A DNA stretch of 64,000 nt from an uncultured Bacteroidota bacterium (lineage in GTDB: Bacteria; Bacteroidota; Ignavibacteria; UBA10030; UBA8401). Location: assembly GCA_937920105.1 (NCBI GenBank), contig CALETH010000028.1:19273-83272 (forward strand). Direction: 5' to 3'. This document shows positions 3,068 to 62,903 of the stretch, piece by piece. The notes below the pieces were generated by a model. The model did not search any database. It was not told where the DNA came from and was given only the letters and a program-made list of their open reading frames with translations. The position numbers and the translations under genes are program-made. The stretch's first letter is position 1. Each line of letters begins with the position of its first letter.

Positions 3068-3097
3068 AGATTCCCACTTAAAGCATGTGGGAATGAC
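3068..3097. repeat. GC-rich hairpin of the GATTCCC(R)C...G(Y)GGGAATGAC family
   Basis: Sequence gattcccac-ttaaagcat-gtgggaatgac. It is a variant of a motif that recurs in many intergenic regions of this window. Confidence 0.5.
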
Positions 3098-3112: not shown

Positions 3113-4552
3113 ATGGAAAACATTCGCGTACGCTTTGCACCAAGTCCCACAGGATACCTTCACGTTGGCGGATTACGCACCGCACTCTATAATTATCTTC
3201 TCGCAAAAAAACATCACGGAAAATTTCTTCTCCGCATCGAAGATACAGACCAATCCCGAAAAGTAGAAGGAGCAATGGAAAATCTCATTGAAACACTTCA
3301 ATGGGCAGGACTTGACTTTGATGAAGGACCAACAAAAGATGGAAATTTCGGACCGTACATTCAATCACAACGATTACCAATTTATCAACAACACGCACAC
3401 CAATTAGTAAAAGAAGAAAAAGCATATTATTGTTTTTGTTCTGCAGAACGATTAGAGCAAGTACGTCAAAAACAAATTGCAGCAAAAGTTCCACCTTCGT
3501 ATGATAGAAATTGTCGTTCAAAATCTTTAGAAGAAGCACAAAAAAAAATTGAACACGGCGAACGTTATGTAATCCGCATGAAAGTTCCACTTACTGGAGA
3601 ATTGGTTTTTGAAGATATGATTCGCGGAAAAGTTGCTATTGGTTATAAAATTTTAGATGACCAAGTCATTCTCAAATCTGATGGATTTCCAACCTACCAT
3701 CTTGCTGTTGTTGTGGATGACCATTTGATGAATATCAGTCACGTAATTCGCGGAGAAGAATGGCTACCCAGCACACCAAAACATATTTTGCTGTATCAAT
3801 ATTTTGGATGGGAAATTCCACAATTTGCACATCTTCCCCTTCTTCTCAATCCTGATAAAAGCAAATTGAGTAAACGACAAGGTGATGTTGCTGTGGAAGA
3901 TTATCGTGCAAAAGGTTTTTTGAAAGAAGCAATTATAAATTTTATTGCATTATTGGGTTGGAATCCCGGAGATAATAGAGAAATTTTTTCTTTAGAAGAA
4001 TTGGTGAAAGAATTTTCGATTGAACGCGTTGGAAAATCCGGAGCAATTTTTAATATAGAAAAATTACAATGGCTCAATCAACAACACATCCGCTTAAAAT
4101 CAGATGATGAATTATTAGCATTAGTGAAACCAAATATTCTTGAACAAGGTTGGAAAAATTTTTCTGATGATTATATAAAAAGTGTCATCAATTTGATGAA
4201 AGAACGTGTTACGGTTCTACCGGATTTTGTGAACGAATGCAAATTTTTTTACGAAGACCCAACGAGTTTTGATGAAAAAGGAAAATCCAAAAATTGGAGT
4301 GCGGAAACACCAAAGCATCTTGCACGATTTGTAGAAAAAATTTCTGAATTACAAAATTATACTGCATCAACAATCGAAGAAACACTTCGTACTACGGCAA
4401 CAGAATTTTCTTTAAGTGCGGGGAAACTTATTCATCCAATTCGCCTTGCTGTCTCGGGAATTTCTCTGGGACCGAGTTTGTTTCATCTGTTAGAAATTGT
4501 AGGAAAAGAAACTGTTGTAAGAAGAATTAATTTTGCGATTAAGAATTTATAA
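3113..4552 (+). CDS. gltX: Glutamyl-tRNA synthetase
   Basis: RVRFAPSPTGYLHVGG (HIGH motif) and KLSKRQ (KMSKS motif). 479 aa class I aaRS architecture. Confidence 0.95.
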   Translation: MENIRVRFAPSPTGYLHVGGLRTALYNYLLAKKHHGKFLLRIEDTDQSRKVEGAMENLIETLQWAGLDFDEGPTKDGNFGPYIQSQRLPIYQQHAHQLVKEEKAYYCFCSAERLEQVRQKQIAAKVPPSYDRNCRSKSLEEAQKKIEHGERYVIRMKVPLTGELVFEDMIRGKVAIGYKILDDQVILKSDGFPTYHLAVVVDDHLMNISHVIRGEEWLPSTPKHILLYQYFGWEIPQFAHLPLLLNPDKSKLSKRQGDVAVEDYRAKGFLKEAIINFIALLGWNPGDNREIFSLEELVKEFSIERVGKSGAIFNIEKLQWLNQQHIRLKSDDELLALVKPNILEQGWKNFSDDYIKSVINLMKERVTVLPDFVNECKFFYEDPTSFDEKGKSKNWSAETPKHLARFVEKISELQNYTASTIEETLRTTATEFSLSAGKLIHPIRLAVSGISLGPSLFHLLEIVGKETVVRRINFAIKNL

Positions 4553-4556
4553 GAAA

Positions 4557-4587
4557 GATTTGTCAAGTTTTTAAAACTTGACAAATC
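4557..4587. repeat. 31-bp AT-centred palindrome GATTTGTCAAGTTTTTAAAACTTGACAAATC
   Basis: Near-perfect palindrome immediately 3' of gltX. The same sequence occurs at 53035-53065, and close variants at 11545, 22698 and 60675. Confidence 0.7.
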
Positions 4588-4602
4588 TAAAAACTGATTA
4601 CT

Positions 4603-8773: not shown

Positions 8774-9517
8774 TTATTTTTGTGGATTGATTGAAGAATT
8801 TAATTCAACTATTTTTTTCCAACTAATTTCACCATTATCATTACAAAAATTATCAAAAAATTCTTTGGTAAATTTATTTATCATTTGAGAATATGACTGC
8901 AAAAAAATATCATTTTTTTCTTTTGCTTTATGTCCGAGTGGTTCAATAATATCTGTATAAAGATTTAAATCTCCAGAAATAAATTCCCAAAATTTTTGAC
9001 CGCAATACTTAAAGTATTCTCCTTTATCAACATTATTCTCTCTACCATAACAGCAACCATTAACTGCAACAACGATAAGTTTTGAATTACTTGTTCGTAA
9101 CGATTTCTTTGCTGTCGTAAAATCAGCAATCATTTTTTTAATTTGTTGTGCATTTCCCCAATTCGGTCCTGATTTTATAGTAACAATATATCGAATTCCA
9201 TCTTTATCAAATTCAAGGTCTATTCCTGATATTCCCGATTTCCAGCCATCATATATTTTTTGATTAATAAATATGGCAAGTCCTTCTAACCAATCACCAA
9301 ATATTGTTTCTTCACTTGAAGAAATATACGCATCAACAATTCCTTTAATAATTTGTTCTGATGTTAAAACATATTTTGCTTTAAATAAATAGGGATTTTT
9401 TTTCTTTAATACAGTTAAAAGTTTCAAACCATCTAAACTTTGTATTCTTTTCTTATGAAAGGTTTCTATATTTTCTTCAACGTATTGCGTAACGTCTTTG
9501 AGTTTTAACTTCTTCAT
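8774..9517 (-). CDS. Putative Type II restriction endonuclease (partner of the adjacent methyltransferase)
   Basis: Overlaps the 3' end of the methyltransferase gene by 41 bp on the same strand. No recognisable housekeeping family. Segment GIDLEFDKDGIRYIVTIKSG could be a PD-(D/E)xK-like core. The call rests mainly on context. Confidence 0.45.
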   Translation of the reverse strand: MKKLKLKDVTQYVEENIETFHKKRIQSLDGLKLLTVLKKKNPYLFKAKYVLTSEQIIKGIVDAYISSSEETIFGDWLEGLAIFINQKIYDGWKSGISGIDLEFDKDGIRYIVTIKSGPNWGNAQQIKKMIADFTTAKKSLRTSNSKLIVVAVNGCCYGRENNVDKGEYFKYCGQKFWEFISGDLNLYTDIIEPLGHKAKEKNDIFLQSYSQMINKFTKEFFDNFCNDNGEISWKKIVELNSSINPQK

Positions 9518-10358
9518 AAATAATTTTAGTTTCTTCTAATAAAGGCAACTCCTTATTTTGCAATTCATTTTTTACCATTTGATAATATTCAGGAACAACA
9601 TCTATACCAATAGAATGTCGTTGCATTCTATGAGCAACAAGTATTGTTGTACCTGAACCCATAAATGGGTCAAGAACAGTATCATATTTTTTAGTGAAAA
9701 GTTTGATGAACCATTCCGGTAATTCTTCAGGAAATGCAGCAGAGTGATTTTTATTATTACATTCTGTTGCAAGATGTAAAACATTTGTTGGATATGCTTT
9801 ATCTCTATGTAACCAATTAGAAATTTTTTTTCCGAAACCACTGCCAACTTTAGAAACATCTCTTACCTTATCTGTATTTGATAAATTTTTGAGACGTGTT
9901 TTTGACCACTCACCCATCGGAACCATTACTTCATCTTGATACATTGCAAAATGTTTGGATTTATTAAATTGTAATAAACGTTCCCACGCATCACGAAATC
10001 TGTTTGGCCATTTTCCTGGATAACTATTTTTTTTATGCCAAATAAATTCTTCTGTCCACAACCAACCTTGTTTTCTCATTTCCAAAATTAATTCCATTAC
10101 ATAAGTACTTCTTTCACCATTTACAACTTTTTCTTTAATATTAAGAATAAAAGTTCCAGTTGGTTTTAATACTCGTAAAAGTTCTGCAGAGATTGGTAAA
10201 AACCATTCAACATACTTTTCATGCGAAACACCTCCGTATGTATTTTTTCTTTGGTCTGCATACGGTGGAGATGTTACAATAAGGTCAACAGAATTTTCAG
10301 GAATTTTTTGAAGTTCCTTTGCACTATCACCCAGATATAAATTTGCTTTTATATTCAT
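9477..10358 (-). CDS. DNA methyltransferase, beta-class amino-MTase (N4-cytosine or N6-adenine)
   Basis: Motif IV TSPPY near the N-terminus and motif I DPFMGSGTT near the C-terminus (circularly permuted beta order). Has the HRDKAYPT pre-motif-I segment. Confidence 0.85.
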   Translation of the reverse strand: MNIKANLYLGDSAKELQKIPENSVDLIVTSPPYADQRKNTYGGVSHEKYVEWFLPISAELLRVLKPTGTFILNIKEKVVNGERSTYVMELILEMRKQGWLWTEEFIWHKKNSYPGKWPNRFRDAWERLLQFNKSKHFAMYQDEVMVPMGEWSKTRLKNLSNTDKVRDVSKVGSGFGKKISNWLHRDKAYPTNVLHLATECNNKNHSAAFPEELPEWFIKLFTKKYDTVLDPFMGSGTTILVAHRMQRHSIGIDVVPEYYQMVKNELQNKELPLLEETKIIYEEVKTQRRYAIR

Positions 10359-10372
10359 TTTCGTAGATTTTT

Positions 10373-11446
10373 TTACGCTGCACTATTAATTGCTAACTGA
10401 CCGCATGCTGCATCAATATCAACACCGGAACTATTGCGAATAAAGACATCAACATTTCCATCTCGTAATTTTCTTGCAAAACTCAACATCTTCTCTTCTG
10501 AAACACCTCGCAATGTTGCAGCAAATCCTTGCGGATTAGTGAATTGAATTGAATGATATGGAATAAGATTGACTTTACACTCAAACCGACGTGAAACTTT
10601 AATCAGTTTTGCAACATCACTATCAGAATCATTGACACCATCAAATAAAATATATTCTAACATCACACCTTTTTTTGTAATATGATGATAATATTCTAAT
10701 GCATCTAATAATTCATCAACATTATATTTTTTTGTAATTGGCATTATTTGAAGACGTGTTGCTGAATCCAAAGAATGCAACGAAAGTGCAAGTTTTACTT
10801 TTCTTCCTTCATCAGCCATTTTACGAATTTGTTGAACGTAGCCGGCTGTGGAAACGGTAATTCGCCGCGGACTCATCGCAAAACCAGTTGGCGATGTGAG
10901 AATATCAATAGCGTTCATCACATTATCATAATTCAACATTGGCTCGCCCATTCCCATAAACACAATATTAGTAATTGGTCTGGTACTTTGCTGTTGTGCA
11001 AGAATTACTTGATTGAGAATTTCGCTGGCTGTTAAATTTCGTAAAAAACCCATGCTTGCTGTTGCACAAAATTTACAATCTAATGGACATCCAACTTGTG
11101 TGGAAACGCATAATGTAAGACGTGTATCAACATCGACTGCTGTGGTTCTGGGTGGAATGACGACGCTTTCTATTTTTTTTTCATCAAAAAGTTGAAAAAG
11201 AAATTTTACCGTGTTATCTAATAATGAAGTTTGTTTGGAAACAATATTCAATCGTTCAATACAAGCGTTTTGTTCTAATTTTTCTCGTAATGGAATCGAT
11301 AAATTGAGCATTTCTTGAAATGAGGAAACTCGCTCTTTATAAAGCCATTCAAACAACTGAGTTGCTCGAAATTTTTTTTCTCCTAATTCAAGAACAAATG
11401 TTTCTAGTTCTGATAACGATTTTCCAAAAAGATTGTGTTTTTTCAT
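10373..11446 (-). CDS. rlmN: 23S rRNA (adenine2503-C2)-methyltransferase, radical SAM
   Basis: GCPLDCKFCATASMGF radical-SAM motif. Start chosen at MKKHNLFGKSLSELE... (ATG at 11446). The ORF-track N-terminal extension looks spurious. Confidence 0.9.
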   Translation of the reverse strand: MKKHNLFGKSLSELETFVLELGEKKFRATQLFEWLYKERVSSFQEMLNLSIPLREKLEQNACIERLNIVSKQTSLLDNTVKFLFQLFDEKKIESVVIPPRTTAVDVDTRLTLCVSTQVGCPLDCKFCATASMGFLRNLTASEILNQVILAQQQSTRPITNIVFMGMGEPMLNYDNVMNAIDILTSPTGFAMSPRRITVSTAGYVQQIRKMADEGRKVKLALSLHSLDSATRLQIMPITKKYNVDELLDALEYYHHITKKGVMLEYILFDGVNDSDSDVAKLIKVSRRFECKVNLIPYHSIQFTNPQGFAATLRGVSEEKMLSFARKLRDGNVDVFIRNSSGVDIDAACGQLAINSAA

Positions 11447-11544
11447 AAGAATGTTGTTCAATTTATGAAATTTAAAAACGTGTTGCAAACAAAGAAAAAT
11501 TGTATTTAGAAGATGAAATCCATAAATTTTACCTGCTAAAAACA

Positions 11545-11575
11545 GACTAGTCAAGTTTTTAAAACTTGACTAGTC
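11545..11575. repeat. 31-bp AT-centred palindrome GACTAGTCAAGTTTTTAAAACTTGACTAGTC
   Basis: Lies in the divergent rlmN/uvrA intergenic region. Same family as 4557 and 53035. Confidence 0.7.
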
Positions 11576-11596
11576 TCCCTCTAACGAAAAATAAAT

Positions 11597-14751: not shown

Positions 14752-14773
14752 AAAATTTCTCTCTAAAAACCTA

Positions 14774-14800
14774 AGAGCGAAATTTTTCATCCCGCTCTTT
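14774..14800 (+). terminator. Rho-independent terminator candidate
   Basis: Sequence agagcg-aaatttttcatcc-cgctct followed by ttttct. Confidence 0.5.
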
Positions 14801-14804
14801 TTCT

Positions 14805-14841
14805 GGATTCCTGTCCGTGTTTGATACGGGACAGGAATGAC
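14805..14841. repeat. GC-rich hairpin of the GGATTCC...GGAATGAC family (variant)
   Basis: Sequence ggattcctgtccgt-gtttgat-acgggacaggaatgac. Confidence 0.5.
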
Positions 14842-14884: not shown

Positions 14885-16117
14885 CTACTTAAACCTCTTA
14901 ATCGTAACAATCGTTTTATCATCAGAATAATGTTGATTATTGGCACTAAATTTTTGCACATCTTCAAGAACGAGTTGGGTAATTTCTTTTGCAGATTTAT
15001 CCTTATAAGTCAATAATTGTTGAATCAAACGCTCTTCAGAATACAATTCTTCATCAGCATTCATCGCTTCAGAAACACCATCAGTGTACAAAAATAAAAT
15101 ATCACCCTTCTCCATCATAAAACTTTCACTACGGTATTTTTCATTCGGAAACGGACCCAAAATTTGTCCGGTTGGTTCAATAACTTCCACCGTGTGAGTT
15201 TTTGCTCTATATAATAGAGGCGAAGCGTGTCCCGCATTCACAAAAATACATAAGCCCTTTTTATCATTAACAAATTCTGCATAAAATAATGTGAGAAAAC
15301 GTTTATCCGGAAATGCACGATGCACCAATGTATTGATACGGCGAATGAGTGAACTAATTTTTGTTTGGTAGCCCGCACCCATCCGCAACGCACCGGAAAC
15401 ATACAACGCTTGCACTGCTGCTGAAAGACCTTTACTTGCAGCATCTCCAATAACAACATTCACTCTATCATCTTCTTCATTTAAGATGTAATCGAAAAAA
15501 TCTCCACCAACACTTCTATCCGCAACAGAAACACCAAACATTTCATAATTGTGAAAAAACAATTCGTGTTCCGGCAAAATGCTCCGCTGAATTTGGCGGG
15601 CTTTATCCAAATCTTTTTTTAATTGAGCAGTGTTGGTTTCAATAAATTTACTTTTTAATAATGTTGTTACCGCAATACCAATAATATTTAATGTTGCTGC
15701 TAATTGCTCGTGATTTAAATTGGTGTTAAATGAAAGAACGTACGGATACAACATCATATCTTTTACTTTTACCAATTCACCAACACCGGTTGCAGCAAAT
15801 TTTTTTATCCCCTTGCTTCGCAAATACTCATTTGATTCATTGGCAATAATTGTTTTATGACGAGGCAATTGTTTAAATAAACGATACTCATCCAGTTTTA
15901 AAATAAAATGGGATTTTATTTTTTCTGTTGCTCCAACTTGTGCATGAAGTTCATATCCCAATTTTTGTGTATTCAATCGCCAAATTCTCCCACCTTGAAT
16001 TTCTATTCTATCGCTTTGCACTATTTGGTGAATGACATGAAAAAGTAATGCTTCAATAGATTCAAATTCTTTGTTTGCAAAACTTTCGATTGTTTTATAA
16101 AGTTTTAATTGATTCAT
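14885..16117 (-). CDS. PP2C-family serine phosphatase (SpoIIE/RsbU-like) with an N-terminal sensory (GAF-like) region
   Basis: GGDFFDY...GDAASKGLSAA...FYAEF...NAGHASP...LYTDGVSEA...DDKTIV. Confidence 0.8.
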   Translation of the reverse strand: MNQLKLYKTIESFANKEFESIEALLFHVIHQIVQSDRIEIQGGRIWRLNTQKLGYELHAQVGATEKIKSHFILKLDEYRLFKQLPRHKTIIANESNEYLRSKGIKKFAATGVGELVKVKDMMLYPYVLSFNTNLNHEQLAATLNIIGIAVTTLLKSKFIETNTAQLKKDLDKARQIQRSILPEHELFFHNYEMFGVSVADRSVGGDFFDYILNEEDDRVNVVIGDAASKGLSAAVQALYVSGALRMGAGYQTKISSLIRRINTLVHRAFPDKRFLTLFYAEFVNDKKGLCIFVNAGHASPLLYRAKTHTVEVIEPTGQILGPFPNEKYRSESFMMEKGDILFLYTDGVSEAMNADEELYSEERLIQQLLTYKDKSAKEITQLVLEDVQKFSANNQHYSDDKTIVTIKRFK

Positions 16118-16203
16118 ACTACCATTGTATAATGATTATTTATTGCTTCTATAGAACAATATAAGTATTTTTTTGAGCAATTTTTATTTTTTATCACATT
16201 ACT

Positions 16204-17814
16204 ATGAAATCACCTATCACAATAGAAGAAATACAATCCAACGCACTATTTACCAATAGTAACGATGTCGATTTTTCTTCTCTCATTTCTCATATCACAA
16301 AAAAAGAATTTCCTCCACATTCAATCATTGATATTGATAAAAATATTTATCTTATCCTCAAAGGAAAAATTAAAATTTCTAAAAACATCAATTCAACAAT
16401 TGAAATAACTTTATCTACTTTAAACAAAAATGATTTTTTTGGTGAAGCAGAAATTCTTGGACAGCATACCCGTTCTACAAAAATCACAGCAATAGAAAAC
16501 ACTACCCTTGCAGTACTTCCTCAAAAATATTTTGATGAAATAATGTCCACCAATAGAACCGTTGCTTCAAATGTGTTAAAAAATATTATTCAATATCCAG
16601 CATTAGTAGAAGAAACTATTGCAAAAGAAATAGAACATACTATTGCATTTTCTCAACAACACATTAACAAACTCAATCTCTTAATTGAAGCAGCAAAATC
16701 CATCAACTCAATTTTAGACTTAGATAAACTTCTTTCTGTTATTTTAGAAACGGCAATAAAATCCATCCACGCTGATAGAGGAACTCTTTACGTAGTAGAT
16801 GAAGATAAAAAAGAAATTTGGTCAAAAATTTTGCGTGGAAAAGAATTAGTAGAAATACGCCTTCCATTAGGAAAAGGATTAGCAGGGTACGTTGCAGAAA
16901 CTGGAGAAATAATTAATATTCCCGATGTGTATCAAGATTCACGTTTCAATCCTGACATAGATAAGAAATCCGGATACAAAACAACAAACATGCTTTGTAT
17001 GCCAATGAAAAATCGTGAAGGAAAAATTATTGGCGTATTTCAACTATTAAATAAAAAGAATGAGCCATTTAATAAATCCGACGAAGATTTTATTACTGCA
17101 CTTTCCACACATGCCTCTATTGCTATTGAAAATTCCAAACTTGCACAAGCAATGGTGAATAATGAACGACTTTCTGCTGTAGGAAGAATGGCAAACACTA
17201 TTATTCATGATATAAAAAATCCCATGAGTACTTTACGCCTTTACGCACAAGCAATCAAACAAAAAGCAAATAATGATTCCGCAAAATTAGCGGATGAAAT
17301 TATTCGTCAGGTTGACCGTTTTGTTACCATGACTCAAGAAATTTTGGATTTTAGCAGAGGCGTTAGTTCTACGAATATAGAAGAAGTGGATTTAAATGAA
17401 ATAATGGAAAGCGTACTAACATTTTTAGAAAAAGATTTAACCAAAAAGAATATTACTCTTACAAAAAATTTAAAGCACAATGGTACCGTAAAAATTGACC
17501 AAGAAAAAATGATTCGTGTTTTCTATAATATCGCCAGCAATGCAGCAGATGCAATGAGTGGTGGAGGTAACCTTTCTGTAGAAACCAATAAAAGTAAGAA
17601 TTATATAACTATTTCTTTTACTGATACCGGAAGTGGAATGCCTGAGGAAATTAAAAAGAAAATTTTTGAACCTTTTATTACTTATGGAAAAAAACACGGG
17701 ACAGGTTTAGGAATGGCAATTGTAAAAAAAATTATGGATGACCACAACGGAAAAATTGAAATTGAAAGCGAACTTGGCAAAGGAACAACGATTACTCTTT
17801 ATCTACCTATATAA
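16204..17814 (+). CDS. Sensor histidine kinase with cNMP-binding and GAF domains
   Basis: N-terminal cyclic-nucleotide-binding-like fold (DFFGEAEILG), a GAF segment, HisKA (IIHDIKNPMSTL) and HATPase_c (DTGSGMPEEIKKKIFEPF...GTGLGMAIVKK). No receiver domain. Confidence 0.8.
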   Translation: MKSPITIEEIQSNALFTNSNDVDFSSLISHITKKEFPPHSIIDIDKNIYLILKGKIKISKNINSTIEITLSTLNKNDFFGEAEILGQHTRSTKITAIENTTLAVLPQKYFDEIMSTNRTVASNVLKNIIQYPALVEETIAKEIEHTIAFSQQHINKLNLLIEAAKSINSILDLDKLLSVILETAIKSIHADRGTLYVVDEDKKEIWSKILRGKELVEIRLPLGKGLAGYVAETGEIINIPDVYQDSRFNPDIDKKSGYKTTNMLCMPMKNREGKIIGVFQLLNKKNEPFNKSDEDFITALSTHASIAIENSKLAQAMVNNERLSAVGRMANTIIHDIKNPMSTLRLYAQAIKQKANNDSAKLADEIIRQVDRFVTMTQEILDFSRGVSSTNIEEVDLNEIMESVLTFLEKDLTKKNITLTKNLKHNGTVKIDQEKMIRVFYNIASNAADAMSGGGNLSVETNKSKNYITISFTDTGSGMPEEIKKKIFEPFITYGKKHGTGLGMAIVKKIMDDHNGKIEIESELGKGTTITLYLPI

Positions 17815-19816: not shown

Positions 19817-19825
19817 AATCAACAT

Positions 19826-19877
19826 CATTCCCGCACGTTCCTGACCTGTCGTCAGGACAGGTTTTAGCGGGAATCCA
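19826..19877. repeat. Compound GC-rich hairpin CATTCCCGC...(inner CCTGACCTGTCGTCAGGACAGG)...GCGGGAATCC
   Basis: The outer stem belongs to the GTCATTCCCGC family. A nested inner inverted repeat sits within it. Confidence 0.55.
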
Positions 19878-20535: not shown

Positions 20536-20791
20536 AAACCTTTAGGATTTCTGAATACTTCATTGATAATTGTTCATTGATAATTGAATTTTTGTTTGCA
20601 CGCTTTTTGTGTCCCGTGCTTTTTACGGGATTTGTTTATATATTTAACCATGATTAAAAGATTTGGAAGATTACCATGATTTTTATATTCATAGTAAATT
20701 TTCTGAGTACTCATTACTGACAACTGATTACTTTTTTCTTAATTCATAATTCTTACTTTTTTTACTCACTTAATTTTAAAGGATAATATCG

Positions 20792-22621: not shown

Positions 22622-22664
22622 TATCATGATTTTTAGGATTACAAGATTTATCATGATTGTGTAG

Positions 22665-22694
22665 GAGCGGATGCAAATCCGCTCTTTATTTTTT
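22665..22694 (+). terminator. Rho-independent terminator
   Basis: Sequence gagcggat-gcaa-atccgctc followed by tttatttttt. Confidence 0.75.
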
Positions 22695-22697
22695 AGA

Positions 22698-22728
22698 GAC
22701 TACAAAAGTTTTAAAAACTTTTGTAGTC
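22698..22728. repeat. 31-bp AT-centred palindrome GACTACAAAAGTTTTAAAAACTTTTGTAGTC
   Basis: Palindrome, variant of the 4557 family. It is followed by an AAACCCTGCCAG...CTGGCAGGGTTT hairpin at 22741-22787. Confidence 0.65.
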
Positions 22729-22883
22729 TTGGTAAAACAAAACCCTGCCAGATTTTAATTCGCCTGTGGCGAACTGGCAGGGTTTATTTTGTTTTTGTTT
22801 ACGAGATTCCTCACTACTCTCGGAATGACAATCATATAAATACAAAAATTCTCATCTACTCCACTACTCATCTACTCAATCAC

Positions 22884-26302: not shown

Positions 26303-27388
26303 TTATTGTGTTTTTAAGATTTTCATAAGTTGATGATTGAGATAAAATTTTTCTTTCCCGACAATTTCACTTTTCAAAAAGCCCTTTTTTTCTAACGTTT
26401 GCAAATATGTTCCGGATGTTTTGATATTTCCTAATCCGGCTTTTTCAATAAATGTTCTTTTAGTATAAGGAAGCCGAAATAAAATTTCCAATAAATCTCG
26501 TGAATACATTTTTGGTAATTGCTTTTGAATTTTTTCTCCCATTGCTTGCATCAGATTTTCTATTTTAGCAATACGTTCTCTTCCGCTTTTTGCCGTTACT
26601 TCAATCATATCCAAAATATAAAACACCCAATCTTCCCACGCTTTTTTTTCTGTAACATTTTTTAATTTGAGATAATATTCATTTTTATTTTTTAAGATGT
26701 AACTGCTTAAATACAACGATGGAAGTTCCATCAATCCACAAAGTTGCAAATATAATAAAAGAATAATTCTTCCTGTTCTTCCATTACCATCAAAGAAGGG
26801 ATGGATTGCTTCAAATTGATAATGGATAAATGCTAATTTAATGAGTGGGTCAATTTCATCTTCAAGATGAATAAATTGTTCTAACGCTTTCAATTTTTCA
26901 CGGATAATGGTTTCACCATCTGGTGGCGTATAAATTACTTTTTGTGTTACAGGATTCTTTAATTGTGTTCCAGGGAAATTTCGTATTCCTGTTTGATTTT
27001 CTTTTATAATTCTCATCAAAGCAATAAAAAGATTTGTTGTGAGTAACGGTTTCTTTTGTATTTGCTCAACGCCATACCACAGTGCATCTTTGTAATGGAT
27101 TACTTCTTTTGTTGCAGGGTCTTCCGTTTGTTTATCAGTAATAGCAGATTTGAATAAATCATCTTGTGTGGTGATAATATTTTCAATTGCAGAACTTGCT
27201 TGTGCTTCTTGCAAGTTAATGGTATCTATAAAAAGTAATGGATTGGGTAAATTAGTGATTGCTCCTTTAAGTTCTGATAATGCCCTACTGGATGAAATAA
27301 GTTTTTTAAGAATGGCTTTTGTTTCTATATTAATTTTGGGTGGTAAATCTGGTAAAGCGTTGTAAGGTTTTAAAGGATTATAATTCAT
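26303..27388 (-). CDS. Fic-family protein (AMPylator type) with an N-terminal Fic_N inhibitory helix
   Basis: HPFFDGNGRTGRIILL Fic motif and an S-SAIEN [S/T]xxxE[G/N] inhibitory motif. Start set at MNYNPLKPYN (ATG 27388). The ORF-track N-terminal extension translates terminator hairpins. Confidence 0.85.
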   Translation of the reverse strand: MNYNPLKPYNALPDLPPKINIETKAILKKLISSSRALSELKGAITNLPNPLLFIDTINLQEAQASSAIENIITTQDDLFKSAITDKQTEDPATKEVIHYKDALWYGVEQIQKKPLLTTNLFIALMRIIKENQTGIRNFPGTQLKNPVTQKVIYTPPDGETIIREKLKALEQFIHLEDEIDPLIKLAFIHYQFEAIHPFFDGNGRTGRIILLLYLQLCGLMELPSLYLSSYILKNKNEYYLKLKNVTEKKAWEDWVFYILDMIEVTAKSGRERIAKIENLMQAMGEKIQKQLPKMYSRDLLEILFRLPYTKRTFIEKAGLGNIKTSGTYLQTLEKKGFLKSEIVGKEKFYLNHQLMKILKTQ

Positions 27389-27428
27389 ACAATATTTTTC
27401 TAAAAAATGCTGTTTTTTTGTATTTCCG

Positions 27429-27493
27429 AACGAGGGCAAAAAATCGCTTTTTTTGCCCTCGTTTAAAAAACGAGGGCGTTTGTTGCCCTCGTT
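27429..27493 (-). terminator. Two tandem hairpins sharing GCCCTCGTT arms; likely terminator of the aminotransferase gene
   Basis: First hairpin aacgagggc-aaaaaatcgcttttttt-gccctcgtt. Second hairpin aacgagggc-gtttgtt-gccctcgtt. Confidence 0.5.
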
Positions 27494-27508
27494 CAAAAAT
27501 AATATTAT

Positions 27509-31508: not shown

Positions 31509-32285
31509 TTATTGATTGTATCGTGAAAAATAATTATCTATTTCGGTTCGTAGTTCAATTCCAACTTTTTCAAAAATAGTAAGTAATTGTTGATATGTAC
31601 CTTCTCCACCAAGAAAATCCCAAAATTCGTTTGCTACTTTTAACTCATTTTCTAAATCCAACATTCCTCTCATTGTCCAACGATTATAGGGTTGCGGTTC
31701 ATACGGATTATACGGTATTGCGACAAGTGAATGAACTTTTGCTTTTGGCTCATTGGCAAGTGTTACAGCTACCCACTCTAAAAGAGTTCGTTTAAATTCT
31801 TTAAAACCGCCTGCATTGGGTTTTGCTGTTTTTATATCAAAAAGAAAAATTTGATTATTCTTATCTACTAATTTTATATCTACTTTTGTTGGTTTTACAG
31901 TAATCATTTTTCCTTTTCTACAAACATTTCTAATTTTTTCTATTTCTGAATTTTTATTTGGTGAGGTTTTTGCTGTCGTAAGTCCATCCATAATTTGTTG
32001 GATAACTTTTTGTGCTTCTTCACTTATTTCAGTTCCTGCTGTTGCTTGTGATGTTACTTCTTTAAAATTTGTTAATGCTAAGGCCACAGCGACTGGCTCA
32101 AAAATGCTTGTACCAAAATTTGTATTAAGAGAATGTATAAATGAAAACAACGCCATTCTATCTTTACCTAAAAGACGTGTATGAAATGGCATTGATGCTG
32201 GTTCTGGCTTATAGTTTTGAAATTTACGTCGTAAATTTTCTTTAAGAACAGTTTCTATTTGTTGAATTTGTAATTTTTCTAACAA
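31509..32285 (-). CDS. Putative Type II restriction endonuclease (PD-DxK)
   Basis: Overlaps the 3' end of the methyltransferase gene by 7 bp. KLVD-x9-DIK fits a PD-(D/E)xK core. Confidence 0.5.
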   Translation of the reverse strand: MLEKLQIQQIETVLKENLRRKFQNYKPEPASMPFHTRLLGKDRMALFSFIHSLNTNFGTSIFEPVAVALALTNFKEVTSQATAGTEISEEAQKVIQQIMDGLTTAKTSPNKNSEIEKIRNVCRKGKMITVKPTKVDIKLVDKNNQIFLFDIKTAKPNAGGFKEFKRTLLEWVAVTLANEPKAKVHSLVAIPYNPYEPQPYNRWTMRGMLDLENELKVANEFWDFLGGEGTYQQLLTIFEKVGIELRTEIDNYFSRYNQ

Positions 32286-33865
32286 GACTTTACTTCTTTC
32301 AAATGAAAAATTATTTCCGCATACGCTGTTTTATCTTTTTCTGTACGGTTTAATACGGGACGTTTAAATTGATTAACGATTTTCATTTCTGCTTTTTCTG
32401 CAATTATTGGATATAAGTTAAATTTATCATTAGAAACTAAAAATATATTATAATTTTCTTCTAAATATTGTTTGCAATTATTTAATACAGCGGAAATTCC
32501 ATCCACATATAAACGTTGTGCTTCTTTTGTTTGTTTTTTTGCAAGTGGTCCTATTTCCAATTCATCATTTCGCTCAAAACCAAATAAATCGTATGCGTAC
32601 GCATGTTGTTCATGATAATCAATTAATCCAACATACGGAGGCGAAGAAAAAATTCCTTGAATTTTCTTTTCTTTTACTATTGCAGCAAATGCTGGAAATA
32701 TTTTTTGCAGTTGTTTATAAATATCAATAGTACGAGAATCTCCTGTTAAACATATTTGATTGGTATTTGTTCGTAGTGAGGTAAATTCGCTTAATCGTTT
32801 TATGGTATCTTTGGAATATCGTTCCCACCAATCATACATAGAAAAAAGCGGTTTACAAATTTTTCCATGTTTTGCACAATAATAAGTACTGGTAATTGGT
32901 TCAATTAATGTTGCTAAATCAGCATGAGTTGTTGCCCTACAAGTTCTCACCGTTCTACTTAAAATAATACTTACTATTTTTTTAACTTGTGAATTTTTGA
33001 TGGATTTTACTAATTCAAAAACAAAATCGATTTCTTTTCTTACTGGATACAAGTACCATGTATCCAAAAAAGTTTTTTTGTTTTTTTGCTGTATTTGAAT
33101 AGAAAATTGTTTTACTAGTTTTTGAAATATGGGTTGGAATTTTTGAACTTTATCTTGTGTGTATTCCAATTCATTTATTTTTTTTTCTTTCAGCCAATGT
33201 TTATAATCGGGTGATGGAAAGTATGTGTTATTAAAGGTGGTGAGTTTTTCTAGAAGTGCTTCCTCAAATTGTCTGTTGGAATGACTTGCAATAAATTGTT
33301 GTAGTTTGGAAGAAATATTTTTTACTTCAATAAGTATATCTGATAAATTATAATGAGCAATTTTTGCATTGGAAATGTGTGTATTAAATGCAGAAACATC
33401 TATACCAATTGCATGAATTCCTAATTCATTGGCTTGCACTAAAGTTGTTCCACTTCCACAAAATGGGTCAAGAACAATATCTCCTGCTTGAAAATATTTT
33501 TCTTTTTTAAATTCATCTGTATGATTATCTAAAAAATATTCCACAAGTTGTGGAATAAATTTTCCTTTATAAGGATGTAATCGATGAACATGTTTTGTAG
33601 TTTCTGCTTCTTTTAAATAATCAAATGATAAATTCCAATTCAAATCATTGCCAAGTTGTTTTTTCCAATTTAATTCTCGTTTTCCGTAAAATGATTCATA
33701 GTATTTACGTAATTCATCTTTTTTAATCAAAGGATTTCCATTATTACCTACTTTTTTAATTTTTCCGTAATTAATCAAATAAGTAATATTAGACGTTGTT
33801 ACATTTTTGTTCAAATGTTCCGACGCCCAAATGCTTGCTTCTTTTATTGTTAAAAAATCGTTCAT
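32279..33865 (-). CDS. DNA methyltransferase (amino-MTase, alpha-like order) with an N-terminal HTH-like region
   Basis: Motif I VLDPFCGSGTT (~residue 130) preceded by HRLHPYKGKFIPQLVEYFL. Motif IV SSPPY lies near the C-terminus. Confidence 0.8.
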   Translation of the reverse strand: MNDFLTIKEASIWASEHLNKNVTTSNITYLINYGKIKKVGNNGNPLIKKDELRKYYESFYGKRELNWKKQLGNDLNWNLSFDYLKEAETTKHVHRLHPYKGKFIPQLVEYFLDNHTDEFKKEKYFQAGDIVLDPFCGSGTTLVQANELGIHAIGIDVSAFNTHISNAKIAHYNLSDILIEVKNISSKLQQFIASHSNRQFEEALLEKLTTFNNTYFPSPDYKHWLKEKKINELEYTQDKVQKFQPIFQKLVKQFSIQIQQKNKKTFLDTWYLYPVRKEIDFVFELVKSIKNSQVKKIVSIILSRTVRTCRATTHADLATLIEPITSTYYCAKHGKICKPLFSMYDWWERYSKDTIKRLSEFTSLRTNTNQICLTGDSRTIDIYKQLQKIFPAFAAIVKEKKIQGIFSSPPYVGLIDYHEQHAYAYDLFGFERNDELEIGPLAKKQTKEAQRLYVDGISAVLNNCKQYLEENYNIFLVSNDKFNLYPIIAEKAEMKIVNQFKRPVLNRTEKDKTAYAEIIFHLKEVKSC

Positions 33866-33878
33866 TGTTCTAAAATAG

Positions 33879-33950
33879 ATTCCTCGCTACGCTCCCGATA
33901 AGTCCCGCTTTGGCGGGATAAATACGGGACAGGTCGGAATGACAAATTTT
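33879..33950. repeat. GC-rich hairpin cluster (GATTCC...GTCCCGCTTTGGCGGGAT...GGAATGAC)
   Basis: Member of the GTCATTCCCGC family with a nested GTCCCGC/GCGGGAT hairpin. Confidence 0.5.
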
Positions 33951-42775: not shown

Positions 42776-42863
42776 CTTAACCCAACGTATCCCGCAAAAA
42801 AATGCGGGACACAAAAAACGTGGAGGGGACTTATTTTGATTTCTGTATTCTGCTTTCTAAATT

Positions 42864-50894: not shown

Positions 50895-52220
50895 CTACAT
50901 CTTCTTCATCATTGCTTCACCAAATTCTGAACACTTAATTTCTTTTGCACCATCCATTAAACGAGCAAAATCGTACGTTACAGTTTTTGCACCAATCGCT
51001 CCATTCAAGCCCTTTAAAATTAAATCCGCTGCTTCAGTCCAACCCATGTACCGCAACATCATTTCTCCGCTTAATACAACTGAACCGGGATTTACTTTAT
51101 CAAGATTCGCATATTTGGGAGCTGTTCCGTGGGTTGCTTCAAAAATTGCGTGCCCGGTGATGTAATTAATATTTCCACCAGGTGCGATTCCAATTCCGCC
51201 AACTTGTGCGGCTAACGCATCAGAAAGATAATCTCCATTTAAATTTAATGTTGCAATCACATCAAAATCTTCCGGACGTGTGAGCACTTGTTGTAAGGTA
51301 ATATCAGCGATTGCATCTTTTATAATAATTCCTGCCCCGGGTTTTCCATCGGGAATTTTACACCACGGTCCGCCATCGATTTCCACAGCACCAAAATATT
51401 CTTTCGCTACTTGATATCCCCAATCCCGAAAAGCACCTTCAGTAAATTTCATGATGTTGCCTTTGTGAACTAATGTTACATTTTTGCGTTTGTTTTCTAT
51501 TGCATAACTAATTGCACTGTGTACAAGTCGGACTGTTCCGGAATAACTTACGGGTTTAATCCCAATTCCCACATTAATATCTGTGGGGAAATTTTTTGCG
51601 CCAACAAGTTTCCAAAATTCTTCGCTTTTCTCTTTTGTGTTGAAACGAATTTTTTCGAAATCTTTTGGAAATTCTTTTGCAAGAAAATCTAAAACTTTTT
51701 GTGCTTCGGGTGAGCCGCCTTTGTACTCAATTCCTGCATAAATATCTTCTGTGTTTTCGCGAAAAATTACCATATCAACTTTTTCAGGATGTTTTACTGG
51801 CGATGGAACTCCGGTAAACCATTGCACTGGACGCAAACAGACATACAAATCTAAAATTTGTCTCAACGCAACATTGAGTGAACGAATTCCTCCTCCAACA
51901 GGAGTAGTCAATGGTCCTTTAATTCCTACAAGATATTCTTTGAATGCTTCGATAGTATCATCATGCAACCATGTATTTGGTCCGTATACTGTGTTTGCTT
52001 TTTCTCCGGCGTACACTTCAAACCATGTGATTTTTCTTTTTCCATTGTATGCTTTTGCAATGGCAGCATCAAACACTTTTTGTGAAGCACGCCAAATATC
52101 TGGTCCAGTTCCATCTCCTTCTATAAATGGTATGATGGGATTTTCTGGAACATTGAGTTTTCCATTTTGGATGGTGATTTTTTTTCCGTTGGTTGGTGGG
52201 GTGAGTTTTACGTATGACAT
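50895..52220 (-). CDS. icd: NADP-dependent isocitrate dehydrogenase
   Basis: 441 aa. [14 protein letters not shown]...SLNVALRQ...[10 protein letters not shown]. Confidence 0.95.
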
Positions 52221-52288
52221 AGAAAATGAGATTGATGTGAAACAATGTAGGGACAGAACATGTTCTGTCCCTACCTGTTATGTTTTTG

Positions 52289-52375
52289 CGGAGAGAGTGG
52301 GATTCGAACCCACGGTACCCTTACGGGTACACTACCTTTCCAGGGTAGCCAATTCAACCACTCTTGCATCTCTCC
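52289..52375 (-). tRNA. tRNA-Ser (anticodon GGA)
   Basis: Reverse complement folds as a type II tRNA. Acceptor stem GGAGAGA/TCTCTCC, anticodon stem CTACC/GGTAG with loop CTGGAAA, a long variable arm (TGTACCCGTAAGGGTAC), and T-arm GTGGG-TTCGAAT-CCCAC. Confidence 0.85.
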
Positions 52376-53024: not shown

Positions 53025-53034
53025 TATTTTTTTA

Positions 53035-53065
53035 GATTTGTCAAGTTTTTAAAACTTGACAAATC
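53035..53065. repeat. 31-bp AT-centred palindrome GATTTGTCAAGTTTTTAAAACTTGACAAATC
   Basis: Identical to the copy at 4557-4587. Lies inside the segment bracketed by the duplicated ogt 3' end. Confidence 0.7.
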
Positions 53066-53291
53066 TCTTCTCACAAAAAATATTTCCCATCCCATACTAA
53101 AACTATCAAAAAGTTTTCTTATTTTAGTTCTGCAAAAATAATTTCTTCCTTCCTAATTTTTTCAGAATGAATTTCTTCTTCGTTTAGAAGGTGCAATTAT
53201 TTTGCAATATGTTGAATTTCCGTAACCCTGCCAGAGTTTTAAACTCTGACAGGGTTTAGTTAAAAATAATTTCCTTCCTAATTTTTTTAGA

Positions 53292-58233: not shown

Positions 58234-58243
58234 AATATTATCG

Positions 58244-58309
58244 TCATGCCCGAATGTTTTCATCGGGCATCCACAAAATAGATTCCCGCTAAAAGCGTGC
58301 GGGAATGAC
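58244..58309. repeat. Two tandem GC-rich hairpins (GTCATGCCCGA...TCGGGCATC and GATTCCCGC...GCGGGAATGAC)
   Basis: Members of the GTCATTCCCGC family. Confidence 0.6.
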
Positions 58310-58335
58310 ATTACACTACAAATAAAATATCTTTT

Positions 58336-60139: not shown

Positions 60140-60161
60140 TTCATAAATCACTAAAATATTT

Positions 60162-60247
60162 GTCATTCCCGCGAAAGCGGGAATCCAGTTTGTTTTTTAC
60201 AATAAAAATGGATGCCCAATAATCCCGACTTGTCGGGATGGGCATGA
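60162..60247. repeat. GC-rich hairpins GTCATTCCCGCGAAAGCGGGAATCC and nested GATGCCCAATAATCCCGACTTGTCGGGATGGGCATGAC
   Basis: Canonical member of the GTCATTCCCGC family, plus a second nested hairpin. Confidence 0.6.
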
Positions 60248-60255
60248 CGGAAAAA

Positions 60256-60642
60256 CTAATTATCCTTTGCACCTTCATTAATCCATTGTTTGAAAAGATT
60301 TACTTCATCTTCTGTTAATTTCTTTTTAGAAAAAAGTGGCATTTGTTTTCCTTTGGGTGGATTAGGTAATAATTTTGTGATGAGATAGCTTTCTTCTGAT
60401 TTTCCTACCACTACAGCTTTTTTATATTTTCCACCTTTCACAATATTTTCATATGTATCCATCATATATCCATTATCTCCATCGGAATCTGGTTGATGAC
60501 ATTTAATACATCGTTTATTGATAATCGGCATTAAATCTTTTGAAAGAGAAATTTCTTTTTTTTCTTCTTTTTTAGTTTCTTGCGAGTACAGTATTGCTAT
60601 ACTTATTGCACAAAGAAAAAAAATTGCGGTGAGTGTTTTCAT
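60256..60642 (-). CDS. Small c-type cytochrome-like protein (standalone PSCyt1-like domain), paralog 1
   Basis: Signal peptide. CIKCH heme-binding motif. C-terminal ...WINEGAKDN, shared with the two paralogs. Confidence 0.6.
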   Translation of the reverse strand: MKTLTAIFFLCAISIAILYSQETKKEEKKEISLSKDLMPIINKRCIKCHQPDSDGDNGYMMDTYENIVKGGKYKKAVVVGKSEESYLITKLLPNPPKGKQMPLFSKKKLTEDEVNLFKQWINEGAKDN

Positions 60643-60674
60643 AGTTTTTCCTTTTATATATGTTAGTGTTTAAA

Positions 60675-60705
60675 GATTACAAAAGTTTTAAAAACTTTTG
60701 TAATC
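60675..60705. repeat. 31-bp AT-centred palindrome GATTACAAAAGTTTTAAAAACTTTTGTAATC
   Basis: Same family as the 22698 element. Confidence 0.65.
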
Positions 60706-60717
60706 TACAAAAATATT

Positions 60718-60798
60718 AAATGTCAGACATCTTATCTCTAAATTTTTTCCTATAACAAATTTTATACATCTTCTTTCTAACAAGATGTCTAACATTTA
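60718..60798. promoter_or_regulatory. 16-bp inverted repeat AAATGTCAGACATCTT ...49 bp... AAGATGTCTAACATTT
   Basis: 15 of 16 positions are complementary. It lies between two cytochrome paralog genes, upstream of the 60256-60642 gene. Confidence 0.4.
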
Positions 60799-60801
60799 GA
60801 G

Positions 60802-61197
60802 TTAATTATCTTTTGCACCTTGGTCAATCCACAAAGAAATTTTAGCAATTTCATTTTCTGTTGCTGAATTTCCCGGTGGCATAATTGTTCCAAAACCGGC
60901 AGTACCTCGCATTTTGGTAATTAAGATACTTCCTGCTCCATTACCAGAAACAATTACTGGTGTGTGAATTCCAGTAGTTTTTAATTCATTCACAGTACCA
61001 AGATTTAATCCGCCAGAACCACCGTGACATCCAATACATCCATATTTATTAAAAATTGGTATGACATCACTTTGAAATGAAATTGTTGATACTGTTGTAT
61101 CCGGTGGAATAATAACTGTTGGTGTTGGTTCATTTCCCATATCCTTACAACTGTATAAAAAAATGCTGGTTACAATGAGAATGTAAAGAAGTTTCAT
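60802..61197 (-). CDS. Small c-type cytochrome-like lipoprotein (PSCyt1-like), paralog 2
   Basis: Lipobox LYSCKD. CIGCH. ...KMRGTAGFGTIMPP...WIDQGAKDN. Confidence 0.6.
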   Translation of the reverse strand: MKLLYILIVTSIFLYSCKDMGNEPTPTVIIPPDTTVSTISFQSDVIPIFNKYGCIGCHGGSGGLNLGTVNELKTTGIHTPVIVSGNGAGSILITKMRGTAGFGTIMPPGNSATENEIAKISLWIDQGAKDN

Positions 61198-61217
61198 AGA
61201 TTTTTTTTAAAATAAAA

Positions 61218-61613
61218 TTAATTATCTTTTGCACCTTGGTTAATCCATGCAGAAATCTTGGTTATTGAAATTTCGGAAATCATACCCTCTGGCGGCATAA
61301 TTGTTCCAAAACCTGCAGTACCACGCATTTTTTTTATTAAAATACTGCCCTCCGCATCCCCAACAATAACTACTGGTTTGTGGTCTCCTGTAGTTTTTAA
61401 TTTGTTTACATTACTAAGATTTAATCCACCATTATCGCCATGACACGTTATACATCTATAGTTATTAAAAATTGGAAGAATATCTTTTTGAAAAGAGACA
61501 GTTGTTGGATAAGGTATATTAGGTGGAAGACCTTCAGGTGGATTATCTCCTAAATCTATACAACCATATAGAAAAAAAAATTTTGCAATAAAAATATAAG
61601 AAAGTTTAGTCAT
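61218..61613 (-). CDS. Small c-type cytochrome-like lipoprotein (PSCyt1-like), paralog 3
   Basis: Lipobox LYGCID. CITCH. ...KMRGTAGFGTIMPP...WINQGAKDN. Confidence 0.6.
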   Translation of the reverse strand: MTKLSYIFIAKFFFLYGCIDLGDNPPEGLPPNIPYPTTVSFQKDILPIFNNYRCITCHGDNGGLNLSNVNKLKTTGDHKPVVIVGDAEGSILIKKMRGTAGFGTIMPPEGMISEISITKISAWINQGAKDN

Positions 61614-62821: not shown

Positions 62822-62893
62822 GTCATTCCTGCGAAAGCAGGAATCCACACATTTTATATTTCTGGATTCCCGCTAAAAACATGCGGGAATGAC
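62822..62893. repeat. Two tandem GC-rich hairpins GTCATTCCTGCGAAAGCAGGAATCC and GGATTCCCGCTAAAAACATGCGGGAATGAC
   Basis: Canonical members of the dispersed family. Confidence 0.65.
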
Positions 62894-62903
62894 ATTTGAA
62901 TTA

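Follow-up and report, generated by a model that had tools for sequence, protein, structure and literature searches.

Hairpin-forming repeats that are recognised as single-stranded DNA (ssDNA) have been described in Neisseria and other bacteria, and they are the closest known relatives of a set of GC-rich hairpins scattered through the intergenic regions of a 64,000-nucleotide stretch of DNA (contig CALETH010000028.1, the whole of which is termed here the window) from an uncultured member of the Bacteroidota. The Neisseria repeats were placed in a wider framework by Chenal et al. (Nat Commun 2025; PMC11893778), whose NTS/SRM repeats include the Neisseria dRS3 element. The Neisseria Transformation Sequence (NTS), CGTCATTCCCGCGMAVGCGGGAATCYRG, contains this older dRS3 repeat, ATTCCC-N8-GGGAAT, while the more general 'Ssn-related motif' (SRM) is given as the degenerate string HGTCWYN(0-2)YYVSBRHN(0-5)WNVSBRGN(0-2)RNCYNB (PMC11893778). 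The partner protein SsnA is a 94-aa single-domain GIY-YIG protein (cd10448), which binds the hairpin only as ssDNA and nicks it a few nucleotides upstream. The GTC preceding the palindrome is required for cleavage and the C following it for binding; SsnA is without activity on double-stranded DNA or RNA and does not bind RNA (PMC11893778). Ssn affects transformation in Neisseria, the ssn gene is present in 81% of genomes having more than 200 SRMs, and an unbiased screen of all N. meningitidis proteins singled out ssnA alone as NTS-flanked across bacteria (PMC11893778). Biochemistry has been published for the Neisseria and Wolbachia Ssn homologues only.

Judged by their sequence, the window hairpins belong to this known NTS/SRM family and represent a new occurrence of it in a low-GC Ignavibacteria-like bacterium. 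The probability that they are SRMs of the NTS/dRS3 type, that is, short, oriented, hairpin-forming repeats acting at the level of ssDNA, is put at about 0.8. Eleven hairpins are found at eight sites and have in common an oriented frame, (H)GTCAT[T/G]CC–stem–loop–stem–GG[A/C]ATCC. The window is low in GC (29–36%) and dense in genes, with an intergenic share of 10.4%, yet all eight sites are intergenic. The octamer ATTCCCGC occurs nine times on the two strands against 0.91 expected, a count reached in none of 100 shuffles; the occurrence at 44019 lies within a gene and forms no hairpin. The published SRM expression matches the window three times, at 58278-58310 (−), 60161-60188 (+) and 62862-62894 (−), compared with 0.03 expected from 200 dinucleotide shuffles. 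The 28-nt Neisseria NTS consensus is matched at 27 of 28 positions (one mismatch) by 60161-60188, against 0.00 expected. An earlier, sequence-only reading of the window had proposed a dispersed intergenic family of palindromes, akin to the repetitive extragenic palindromes (REPs) and BIMEs, and the family is indeed real, structure-conserving and located where it had been placed.

Nine clear members were recovered by a hairpin scan and a frame-based scan, and two further copies are degenerate or composite. The elements are listed below, where + denotes that GTCAT comes first, B and C are stem variants (ATGCCCGA and ATTCCTGTCC, respectively) and z compares the ssDNA fold with shuffled sequence.

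3069-3097, −: single SRM hairpin, A-type variant, GTCATTCCCAC-ATGCTTTAA-GTGGGAATC, stem change compensated on both arms, z −3.6; divergent intergenic region, 16 nt upstream of the gltX start
14773-14804: separate canonical terminator (AAGAGCG…CGCTCTTTTTCT) adjoining the next hairpin
14805-14841, −: single SRM hairpin, C-type, GTCATTCCTGTCCCGT-ATCAAAC-ACGGACAGGAATCC, z −4.6
19825-19876, +: A-type SRM hairpin with head aTCAT for GTCAT, z −6.1; its 9-nt loop ACG·TTTTA is split by a 24-nt nested hairpin, TTCCTGACCTGTCGTCAGGACAGG
22805-22829, −: degenerate copy of the 'GTCATTCCGAGCGTAGCGAGGAATC' sub-type, GTCATTCCGAGAGTAGTGAGGAATC, fold at shuffle level (z −0.6); the same sub-type occurs in database loci L099, L137 and L190
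33878-33943, −: composite, a 'GCGTAGCGA'-sub-type SRM hairpin, GTCATTCCGA…GCGTAGCGAGGAATC, split by an insert of ~41 nt that comprises a C-type arm and a D-type hairpin (ATCCCGCCAAAGCGGGAC); weaker fold, z −2.2
58243-58309: head-to-head doublet with an 8-nt spacer, between convergent genes, z −4.9
58243-58272, +: B-type hairpin of this doublet, GTCATGCCCGA-ATGTTTTCA-TCGGGCATCC
58281-58309, −: A-type hairpin of this doublet, GTCATTCCCGC-ACGCTTTTA-GCGGGAATC
60162-60248: head-to-head doublet with a 23-nt spacer, between convergent genes, z −5.3
60162-60186, +: A-type hairpin of this doublet, GTCATTCCCGC-GAAA-GCGGGAATCCAG, the copy that matches the NTS consensus at 27/28
60210-60248, −: B-type hairpin of this doublet with a nested hairpin, TCCCGACAAGTCGGGA
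62822-62893: head-to-head doublet with a 17-nt spacer, reading on the + strand GTCATTCCTGCGAAAGCAGGAATCC, spacer, GGATTCCCGCTAAAAACATGCGGGAATGAC; z −5.0
62822-62846, +: A-type hairpin of this doublet, GTCATTCCTGC-GAAA-GCAGGAATCC, in which a change from C·G to T·A is compensated
62864-62893, −: A-type hairpin of this doublet, GTCATTCCCGC-ATGTTTTTA-GCGGGAATCC
42789-42810 (+), 20611-20631 (−) and 33902-33919 (−, nested): sister mini-family ATCCCGY…RCGGGAC-ACAAAAA, which has no GTCAT/ATCC frame

The flanks that matter to SsnA are well kept. A GTC head is present in eight of the nine clear copies, the exception being 19825 with ATC, and all nine end in ATC at the 3' side, seven of them in ATCC. Ten of the 11 hairpins fold better as ssDNA than their shuffles, nine with z scores between −3.6 and −6.1. 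Stem changes are compensated within the window, as in the pairs ATTCCTGC/GCAGGAAT and ATTCCCAC/GTGGGAAT, and intergenic mosaics are formed at the three doublet sites and by the nested or composite inserts at 19825-19876, 60210-60248 and 33878-33943. The 14805 hairpin is identical in a 3.5-kb contig of the same species, itself identical to the window, from an independent ENA metagenome assembly (L121), and it is therefore not an assembly artefact. Rfam and tRNA scans of the window returned only a tRNA-Ser and placed no RNA family over the hairpins.

The element is not the symmetric palindrome 'GTCATTCCCGC...GCGGGAATGAC' that had been described. Instead it is asymmetric and oriented (GTCAT…ATCC), with '…GGAATGAC' being the reverse orientation of 'GTCATTCC…'. 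It follows that the double sites at 58243-58309, 60162-60248 and 62822-62893 are inverted head-to-head pairs with their GTC ends outward, and not copies in tandem. Similarly, the hairpin at 42786-42811, formerly counted as a family variant, belongs with the sister mini-family; the sequence ACAAAAA.CG follows the stem in both free copies of the latter, and its third copy lies inside the composite at 33878-33943.

The family extends well beyond the window. One genome per species was scanned with the exact pattern GTCATTCCYRC-N3-12-GYRGGAATCC, yielding at least 120 loci, and scans of metagenome and viral contigs with exact patterns gave at least 120 loci each; the statements on other genomes that follow hold among the matches listed, which are numbered with an L. 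They span more than 15 phyla. Those of the genome scan come from Bacteroidota, Ignavibacteriales and Alpha-, Beta-, Gamma- and Deltaproteobacteria (Neisseria lactamica, L079, included); Chloroflexota, Nitrospirota, Planctomycetota, Patescibacteria, Elusimicrobia and Omnitrophota; and Cloacimonadota, Gemmatimonadota, Acidobacteriota, Vampirovibrionales and a Nanoarchaeota metagenome-assembled genome (MAG). The loci of the genome scan have GC contents of 33–72%, and near-identity of the hairpin is kept across phyla from 31% to 72% GC. Exact copies of window sequences recur: the 3069-3097 hairpin as a 100% identical 30-mer in metagenome locus L174, and the 60162-60248 doublet as 100% identical 31–33-mers in L044 (Parcubacteria) and L120 (Phycisphaerae). 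The 'GCGTAGCGA' sub-type, with relatives at 22805-22829 and 33878-33943, is likewise found in other genomes, and the hairpin is frequent in the IMG/VR viral contigs. A 9-nt loop was considered as a lineage-specific variant and ruled out, as the metagenome scan, which used the 9-nt-loop pattern, showed it to be widespread over loci of 31–65% GC.

Structure is conserved along with sequence. Loops are mostly GAAA, GAAG or GCAG, and in the 166 copies from 120 genomes the base preceding GTC is C or T in 160. Both variable pairs are Watson-Crick in 161 of the 166 copies, and where C has changed to T in the 5' arm a compensating G to A change is present in 19 of 20. The GTCAT head, imposed by the pattern in all 166, is also present in variants that were found independently of it, B and C among them. 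Neighbouring copies within 150 nt are arranged +− in 48 of 59 pairs, against five −+, three ++ and three −−. This is the geometry of the three double sites in the window.

Several of the database loci have peculiarities of their own. The Nanoarchaeota MAG contig (L099, JAHIPG010000372.1) carries the bacterial-type hairpin GTCATTCCCGCGCAGGCGGGAATCC and the GTCATTCCGAGCGTAGCGAGGAATC sub-type, at 1512-1533 and ~1040-1070; for a DPANN-binned contig, this could reflect real transfer or a binning error. In a Nitrospirales MAG (L014), positions ~4040-4450 of the minus strand hold tandem 24-nt units, GTCAT(G/T)CCCGCAG(C/T)(C/T)CGTCCCTC(C/T), in which SRM 5' half-sites are repeated without the 3' arm, one complete hairpin standing at the end of the array. 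A further hairpin, (GATA)CCCCGCAGCTTGCTGCGGGG(TAGT), recurs with SRM doublets in a lineage of 50–61% GC from soil metagenomes (L129, L151, L168, L169, L213, L236, L241).

That the hairpins are mainly elements of RNA, intrinsic terminators or 3'-end stabilisers whose stem is shared by common descent and which need no dedicated protein, is quite unlikely. The stems are stable, the GTCAT strand is the sense strand directly downstream of a gene end in eight of ten copies, and the doublets at 58243 and 60162 lie between convergent genes; at 60165-60184 a T-rich tail follows and the terminator scan is passed. This is, however, the only one of about ten copies with a terminator-like T tail. The 3069-3097 hairpin is in a promoter region, 62822-62846 is antisense to both adjoining genes, and the 14805 repeat already has a canonical terminator beside it. 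Furthermore, asymmetric flanks of specific sequence are not required for termination, and neither is near-identity among phyla that range from 31% to 72% GC. Thus the sequence-only reading was right that this is not a set of ordinary terminators, and its suggestion of a terminator role is not supported. A secondary effect on termination or transcript stability is possible, although it would leave the family itself unexplained.

One kind of gene does recur next to the hairpins, and it agrees with the partner established by experiment (PMC11893778). A gene for a ~95-aa single-domain GIY-YIG protein (Ssn-type, PF01541) adjoins the hairpin in 14 of 360 loci (three of 120 from genomes, eight of 120 from metagenomes and three of 120 viral). 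Its product is recognisable by the motifs YIGVT, R…H and REK.LKKW.R.WK..LIE..NP.W.DL., and SRM(+) is usually followed after 20–60 nt by ssn and then, a few nucleotides on, by SRM(−), with both SRMs so placed in L042, L108, L148, L182, L205 and L246. Unbiased clustering of open reading frames (ORFs) from 240 hairpin loci singled out GIY-YIG, no other small family being specifically associated with the hairpins. Larger ORF clusters near the hairpins were considered as transposases and rejected; Pfam identifies them as the housekeeping families NMT1, ABC, amidohydrolase, SBP and SDR, whose excess probably reflects the large number of loci from a single soil lineage. Hairpins identical to the window type flank ssn in L182, where the one directly downstream of the gene is identical at 31 of 31 positions to window 62863-62893, in L205/L246 (Ignavibacteria) and in L244 (Melioribacteraceae).

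These last examples bear on the lineage of the window. The window UvrA is closest to 'Bacteroidota' and 'Ignavibacteriales' MAG proteins (65–73% identical), and several proteins sorted by the type IX secretion system are encoded. The Ssn of L205 (35% GC) matches a protein from an Ignavibacteria MAG at 100% identity and has homologues at 71–77% in Melioribacteraceae and Ignavibacteriaceae. Melioribacteraceae bacterium 4301-Me (L244, GCA_041538185.1, 34.5% GC) has two identical 95-aa ssn genes 6.4 kb apart, each in a unit of ~420 nt bounded by SRM(+) and SRM(−). The units are 99% identical and lie within arrays (regions 9660-10710 and 15510-16770) totalling ~20 hairpins (~10 round each), some nested, of two alternating types, ATTCCCGY and ATACCCGC. 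The SRM–ssn system thus exists in the class to which the window belongs, and the source genome probably encodes an Ssn outside the 64 kb.

The partner that had been suggested was a different one, a REP-associated tyrosine transposase (RAYT) or another IS200-like protein. It is quite unlikely that the hairpins are REP or REPIN elements mobilised by such an HUH-Y1 enzyme, even though head-to-head doublets, which define REPINs, predominate here. A preprint by Bertels and Rainey (10.1101/2021.07.10.451892) assigns ATTCCCGCGCAGGCGGGAATC, of which N. meningitidis has 241 copies, to a Group 2 RAYT as its REPIN population, and reports REPIN decay where the Neisseria Group 2 RAYT is frameshifted. This assignment keeps the RAYT alive as a candidate in Neisseria only, and the N. 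meningitidis protein screen singled out ssnA only (PMC11893778). In the present material, no RAYT was found in the window or in 366 loci (~2.6 Mb) among the matches listed, and a RAYT or IS200-like partner is not supported. A RayT query had no homologue at E ≤ 1 among the ORFs of the window and of 246 loci among the matches listed, and none at E ≤ 0.01 in the 120 viral loci listed. This query was validated by NCBIfam NF047646 (179 bits) and had no match to Pfam Y1_Tnp at E ≤ 0.001; as a single sequence it could miss very divergent RAYT groups. The HUH…Y..NP pattern was matched by no ORF of the same 246 loci and the window, and the 55 main ORFs of the window include no Y1_Tnp or other transposase domain. 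The head of the element also differs, being GTC and not the GTAG or GTGG of RAYT-linked REPs, in which this tetranucleotide is reportedly typical of the 5' end of the stem.

It is very unlikely that the repeats are attachment or target sites of a site-specific recombinase or an insertion sequence (IS) of the IS110/Piv type. In favour of this reading, dRS3 is described as the target of a phage recombinase (PMC11893778), the Nf/MDA filamentous prophage integrates at dRS3 in Neisseria, IMG/VR viral contigs commonly carry the hairpin, and nested copies suggest that hairpin loops are insertion targets. Against it, the window lacks IS110, Piv and integrase genes, the 240 loci among the matches listed show no recurrent family of this kind beside the hairpins, and use as a target by some elements would leave the existence and multiplication of the repeats unexplained.

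If the hairpins are indeed SRMs, their behaviour can be pictured by analogy with the binding and ssDNA-specific cleavage reported for the Ssn of other hosts. When the strand is exposed, in replication, in repair or as DNA enters by transformation or conjugation, the GTCAT strand would fold into a hairpin. The ~95-aa single-domain GIY-YIG Ssn would bind the stem and the C that follows, and would then nick the exposed strand, a few nucleotides to the 5' side of GTC. The self-contained unit would be SRM(+)–ssn–SRM(−), and the three doublets of the window are most likely gene-less derivatives of the MITE or REPIN kind, copied or moved in trans. Ssn is the presumed agent by which the repeats spread.

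The signs of mobility lie in the doublets, whose +− geometry is the end geometry of SRM(+)–ssn–SRM(−). That at 58243-58309 shares 91–93% identity with L138 and L196 (57–62% GC) over 68 nt and 82% with L237 (45% GC), with the similarity starting exactly at GTCAT and stopping exactly at ATGAC between unrelated flanks. The suggestion of the earlier reading, that of a mobile or recombinogenic unit, is supported in that this conservation across unrelated genomes makes the element look like a mobile or duplicating one. A doublet of ~90 nt and the same design is present at no fewer than 15 different loci of the 50–61% GC lineage. Nested copies, at 19825, 60210 and 33878 in the window and in L043, L098, L182 and L244 elsewhere, suggest insertion into resident hairpins. 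Taken together, these signals are consistent with a selfish unit that spreads horizontally and has given rise to derivatives lacking the gene.

A number of points weigh against the SRM interpretation or the mobility attached to it. The B-, C- and 'GCGTAGCGA'-type copies, as well as the T/A variants, fall outside the published SRM expression. The 64-kb window holds no ssn or GIY-YIG ORF detectable by pattern, phmmer or custom profile (best profile match E = 0.08). Inspection of the doublets, which did not extend to a formal flank logo, revealed no target-site duplication or insertion motif around them, and the argument for mobility draws solely on the identity of the copies and the sharpness of their boundaries. 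To our knowledge, transposition is not catalysed by GIY-YIG nucleases, and we know of no case in which transposition by Ssn has been shown. Finally, a relative with 73% UvrA identity (L122, 22.8 kb) is without hairpins, which makes the distribution of the system in this lineage patchy.

Regardless, one may go a step further and regard the doublets (~65–90 nt) as non-autonomous forms of an autonomous parent, the ~420-nt SRM(+)–ssn–SRM(−) unit, in a transposon-like system driven by a GIY-YIG protein and not by a known transposase. This is a tentative proposal, which is possible and which we would at present hold to be somewhat doubtful. If true, such a system would insert into ssDNA, resident hairpin loops included, and the nested copies would be explained. 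Its elements would cross phyla, possibly on viruses, and remain near-identical in hosts of 31–72% GC, among them that of the DPANN MAG. A GIY-YIG-driven ssDNA mobile system spreading across phyla is plausible but unproven.

On the SRM interpretation the annotation of these sites would be settled, the GC-rich intergenic hairpins being Ssn-type repeats and neither terminators nor RAYT-associated REPs, and spurious small ORFs called over them are to be ignored. The data enlarge a family described only in 2025, as a hairpin of 25–30 nt, and even whole doublets, are almost unchanged among the matches listed, which cover more than 15 phyla of bacteria, the DPANN MAG and viral contigs. The REPIN-like geometry and the 99% identical duplicated SRM–ssn–SRM units fit the open suggestion of a selfish mobile Ssn system. 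Hairpins with a 9-nt loop and those of B- and C-type would be substrates for probing the specificity of Ssn proteins, which are of interest as ssDNA tools.

Other features of the window deserve mention. A second, unrelated palindrome family is AT-rich, with the form AGA(T/C)T(T/A)GTCAAGTTTT-N-AAAACTTGAC…TCT and perfect arms of 16 nt in three copies. Its core, CAAGTTTTNAAAACTTG, is found five times with up to two mismatches (≤2), against 0.18 expected, and two of the copies are terminator-like by a simple scan. They are candidates, from their sequence, for an operator, a bidirectional terminator or another repeat. A stem AACCCTG(CCAG)…(CTGG)CAGGGTT is shared by two further intergenic sites, each near an AT-rich palindrome. 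These and the remaining features are as follows.

4556-4588, 53034-53066, 22690-22735 and 60669-60711: AT-rich palindromes between ORFs
11544-11576: AT-rich palindrome overlapping by 11 nt the listed TTG start of the 10373-11554 ORF
22741-22784 and 53224-53256: hairpins with the shared AACCCTG stem
22622-22883: spacer that is a mosaic of four different hairpin modules
8774-10358: type II restriction-modification pair, EcoO109I-like endonuclease and N6/N4 methylase
31509-33865: type II restriction-modification pair, TdeIII-like endonuclease and methylase, with the composite SRM at 33878 directly after it
27421-27501: four mutually complementary arms, AACGAGGGC(AAAAAA)/TTTTTTGCCCTCGTT, allowing several alternative hairpins, situated at or immediately before the 5' end of a Fic-domain gene (26303-27496, −); it looks like a regulatory leader or attenuator
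52247-52274: perfect 28-nt palindrome, GTAGGGACAGAACATGTTCTGTCCCTAC, between icd (50895-52220) and tRNA-Ser(GGA) (52288-52375)
60256-61613: three paralogous genes in tandem for small cytochromes c (PSCyt1 domain; 128, 131 and 131 aa), with an SRM doublet on one side and an AT-rich palindrome separating genes

Comparison with known mobile and repetitive systems places the window hairpins as follows. Like the IS200/IS605 'peel-and-paste' elements and their MITE-like derivatives, the SRM system has subterminal hairpins recognised on ssDNA, cleavage a few nucleotides outside the hairpin, no classical terminal inverted repeats and no visible target-site duplication. Unlike them, it has neither TnpA nor TnpB, and the covalent 5'-phosphotyrosine intermediate used in strand transfer is not one that GIY-YIG nucleases are known to form. 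The REP/REPIN–RAYT systems and BIMEs of Enterobacteria and Pseudomonas are alike in organisation, with short intergenic palindromes, inverted doublets, mosaic clusters, recognition of an ssDNA hairpin and a single-copy gene flanked by its own repeats. The partner of the SRM, however, is a GIY-YIG nuclease where theirs is an HUH tyrosine transposase, and the head is GTC in place of GTAG.

The dRS3 repeats of Neisseria, which as NIMEs flank RS elements (ATTCCC-N8-GGGAAT), share with the window hairpins an identical core palindrome, ATTCCC…GGGAAT, and a setting in intergenic mosaics with other repeat modules. They differ in being defined as a symmetric 20-mer in a genus of 52% GC and in serving as a prophage integration site, whereas the window hairpins have no linked prophage or recombinase. 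From the NTS/SRM repeats as published, the window copies are set apart by their host, a low-GC (32%) Ignavibacteria-like member of the Bacteroidota, a group absent from the main text of PMC11893778. Many carry a 9-nt loop, AYGYTTTWA, compared with the published 4-nt GMAV loop; stem variants lie beyond the published expression, hairpins are nested within one another and the 64 kb lack an ssn gene. These loop variants, stem variants and nestings in such a host are not described in that paper. The likeness is nonetheless extensive: in both, the repeats are hairpin-forming and almost wholly intergenic, with GTC upstream and C downstream, and they gather in mosaic clusters, occur in many phyla and, in loci related to those of the window, take part in an SRM–ssn–SRM architecture. 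Within the window itself, this kinship is seen in the enrichment of the published consensus and expression, in the oriented flanks, in ssDNA hairpins with compensated stems and in the intergenic mosaics.

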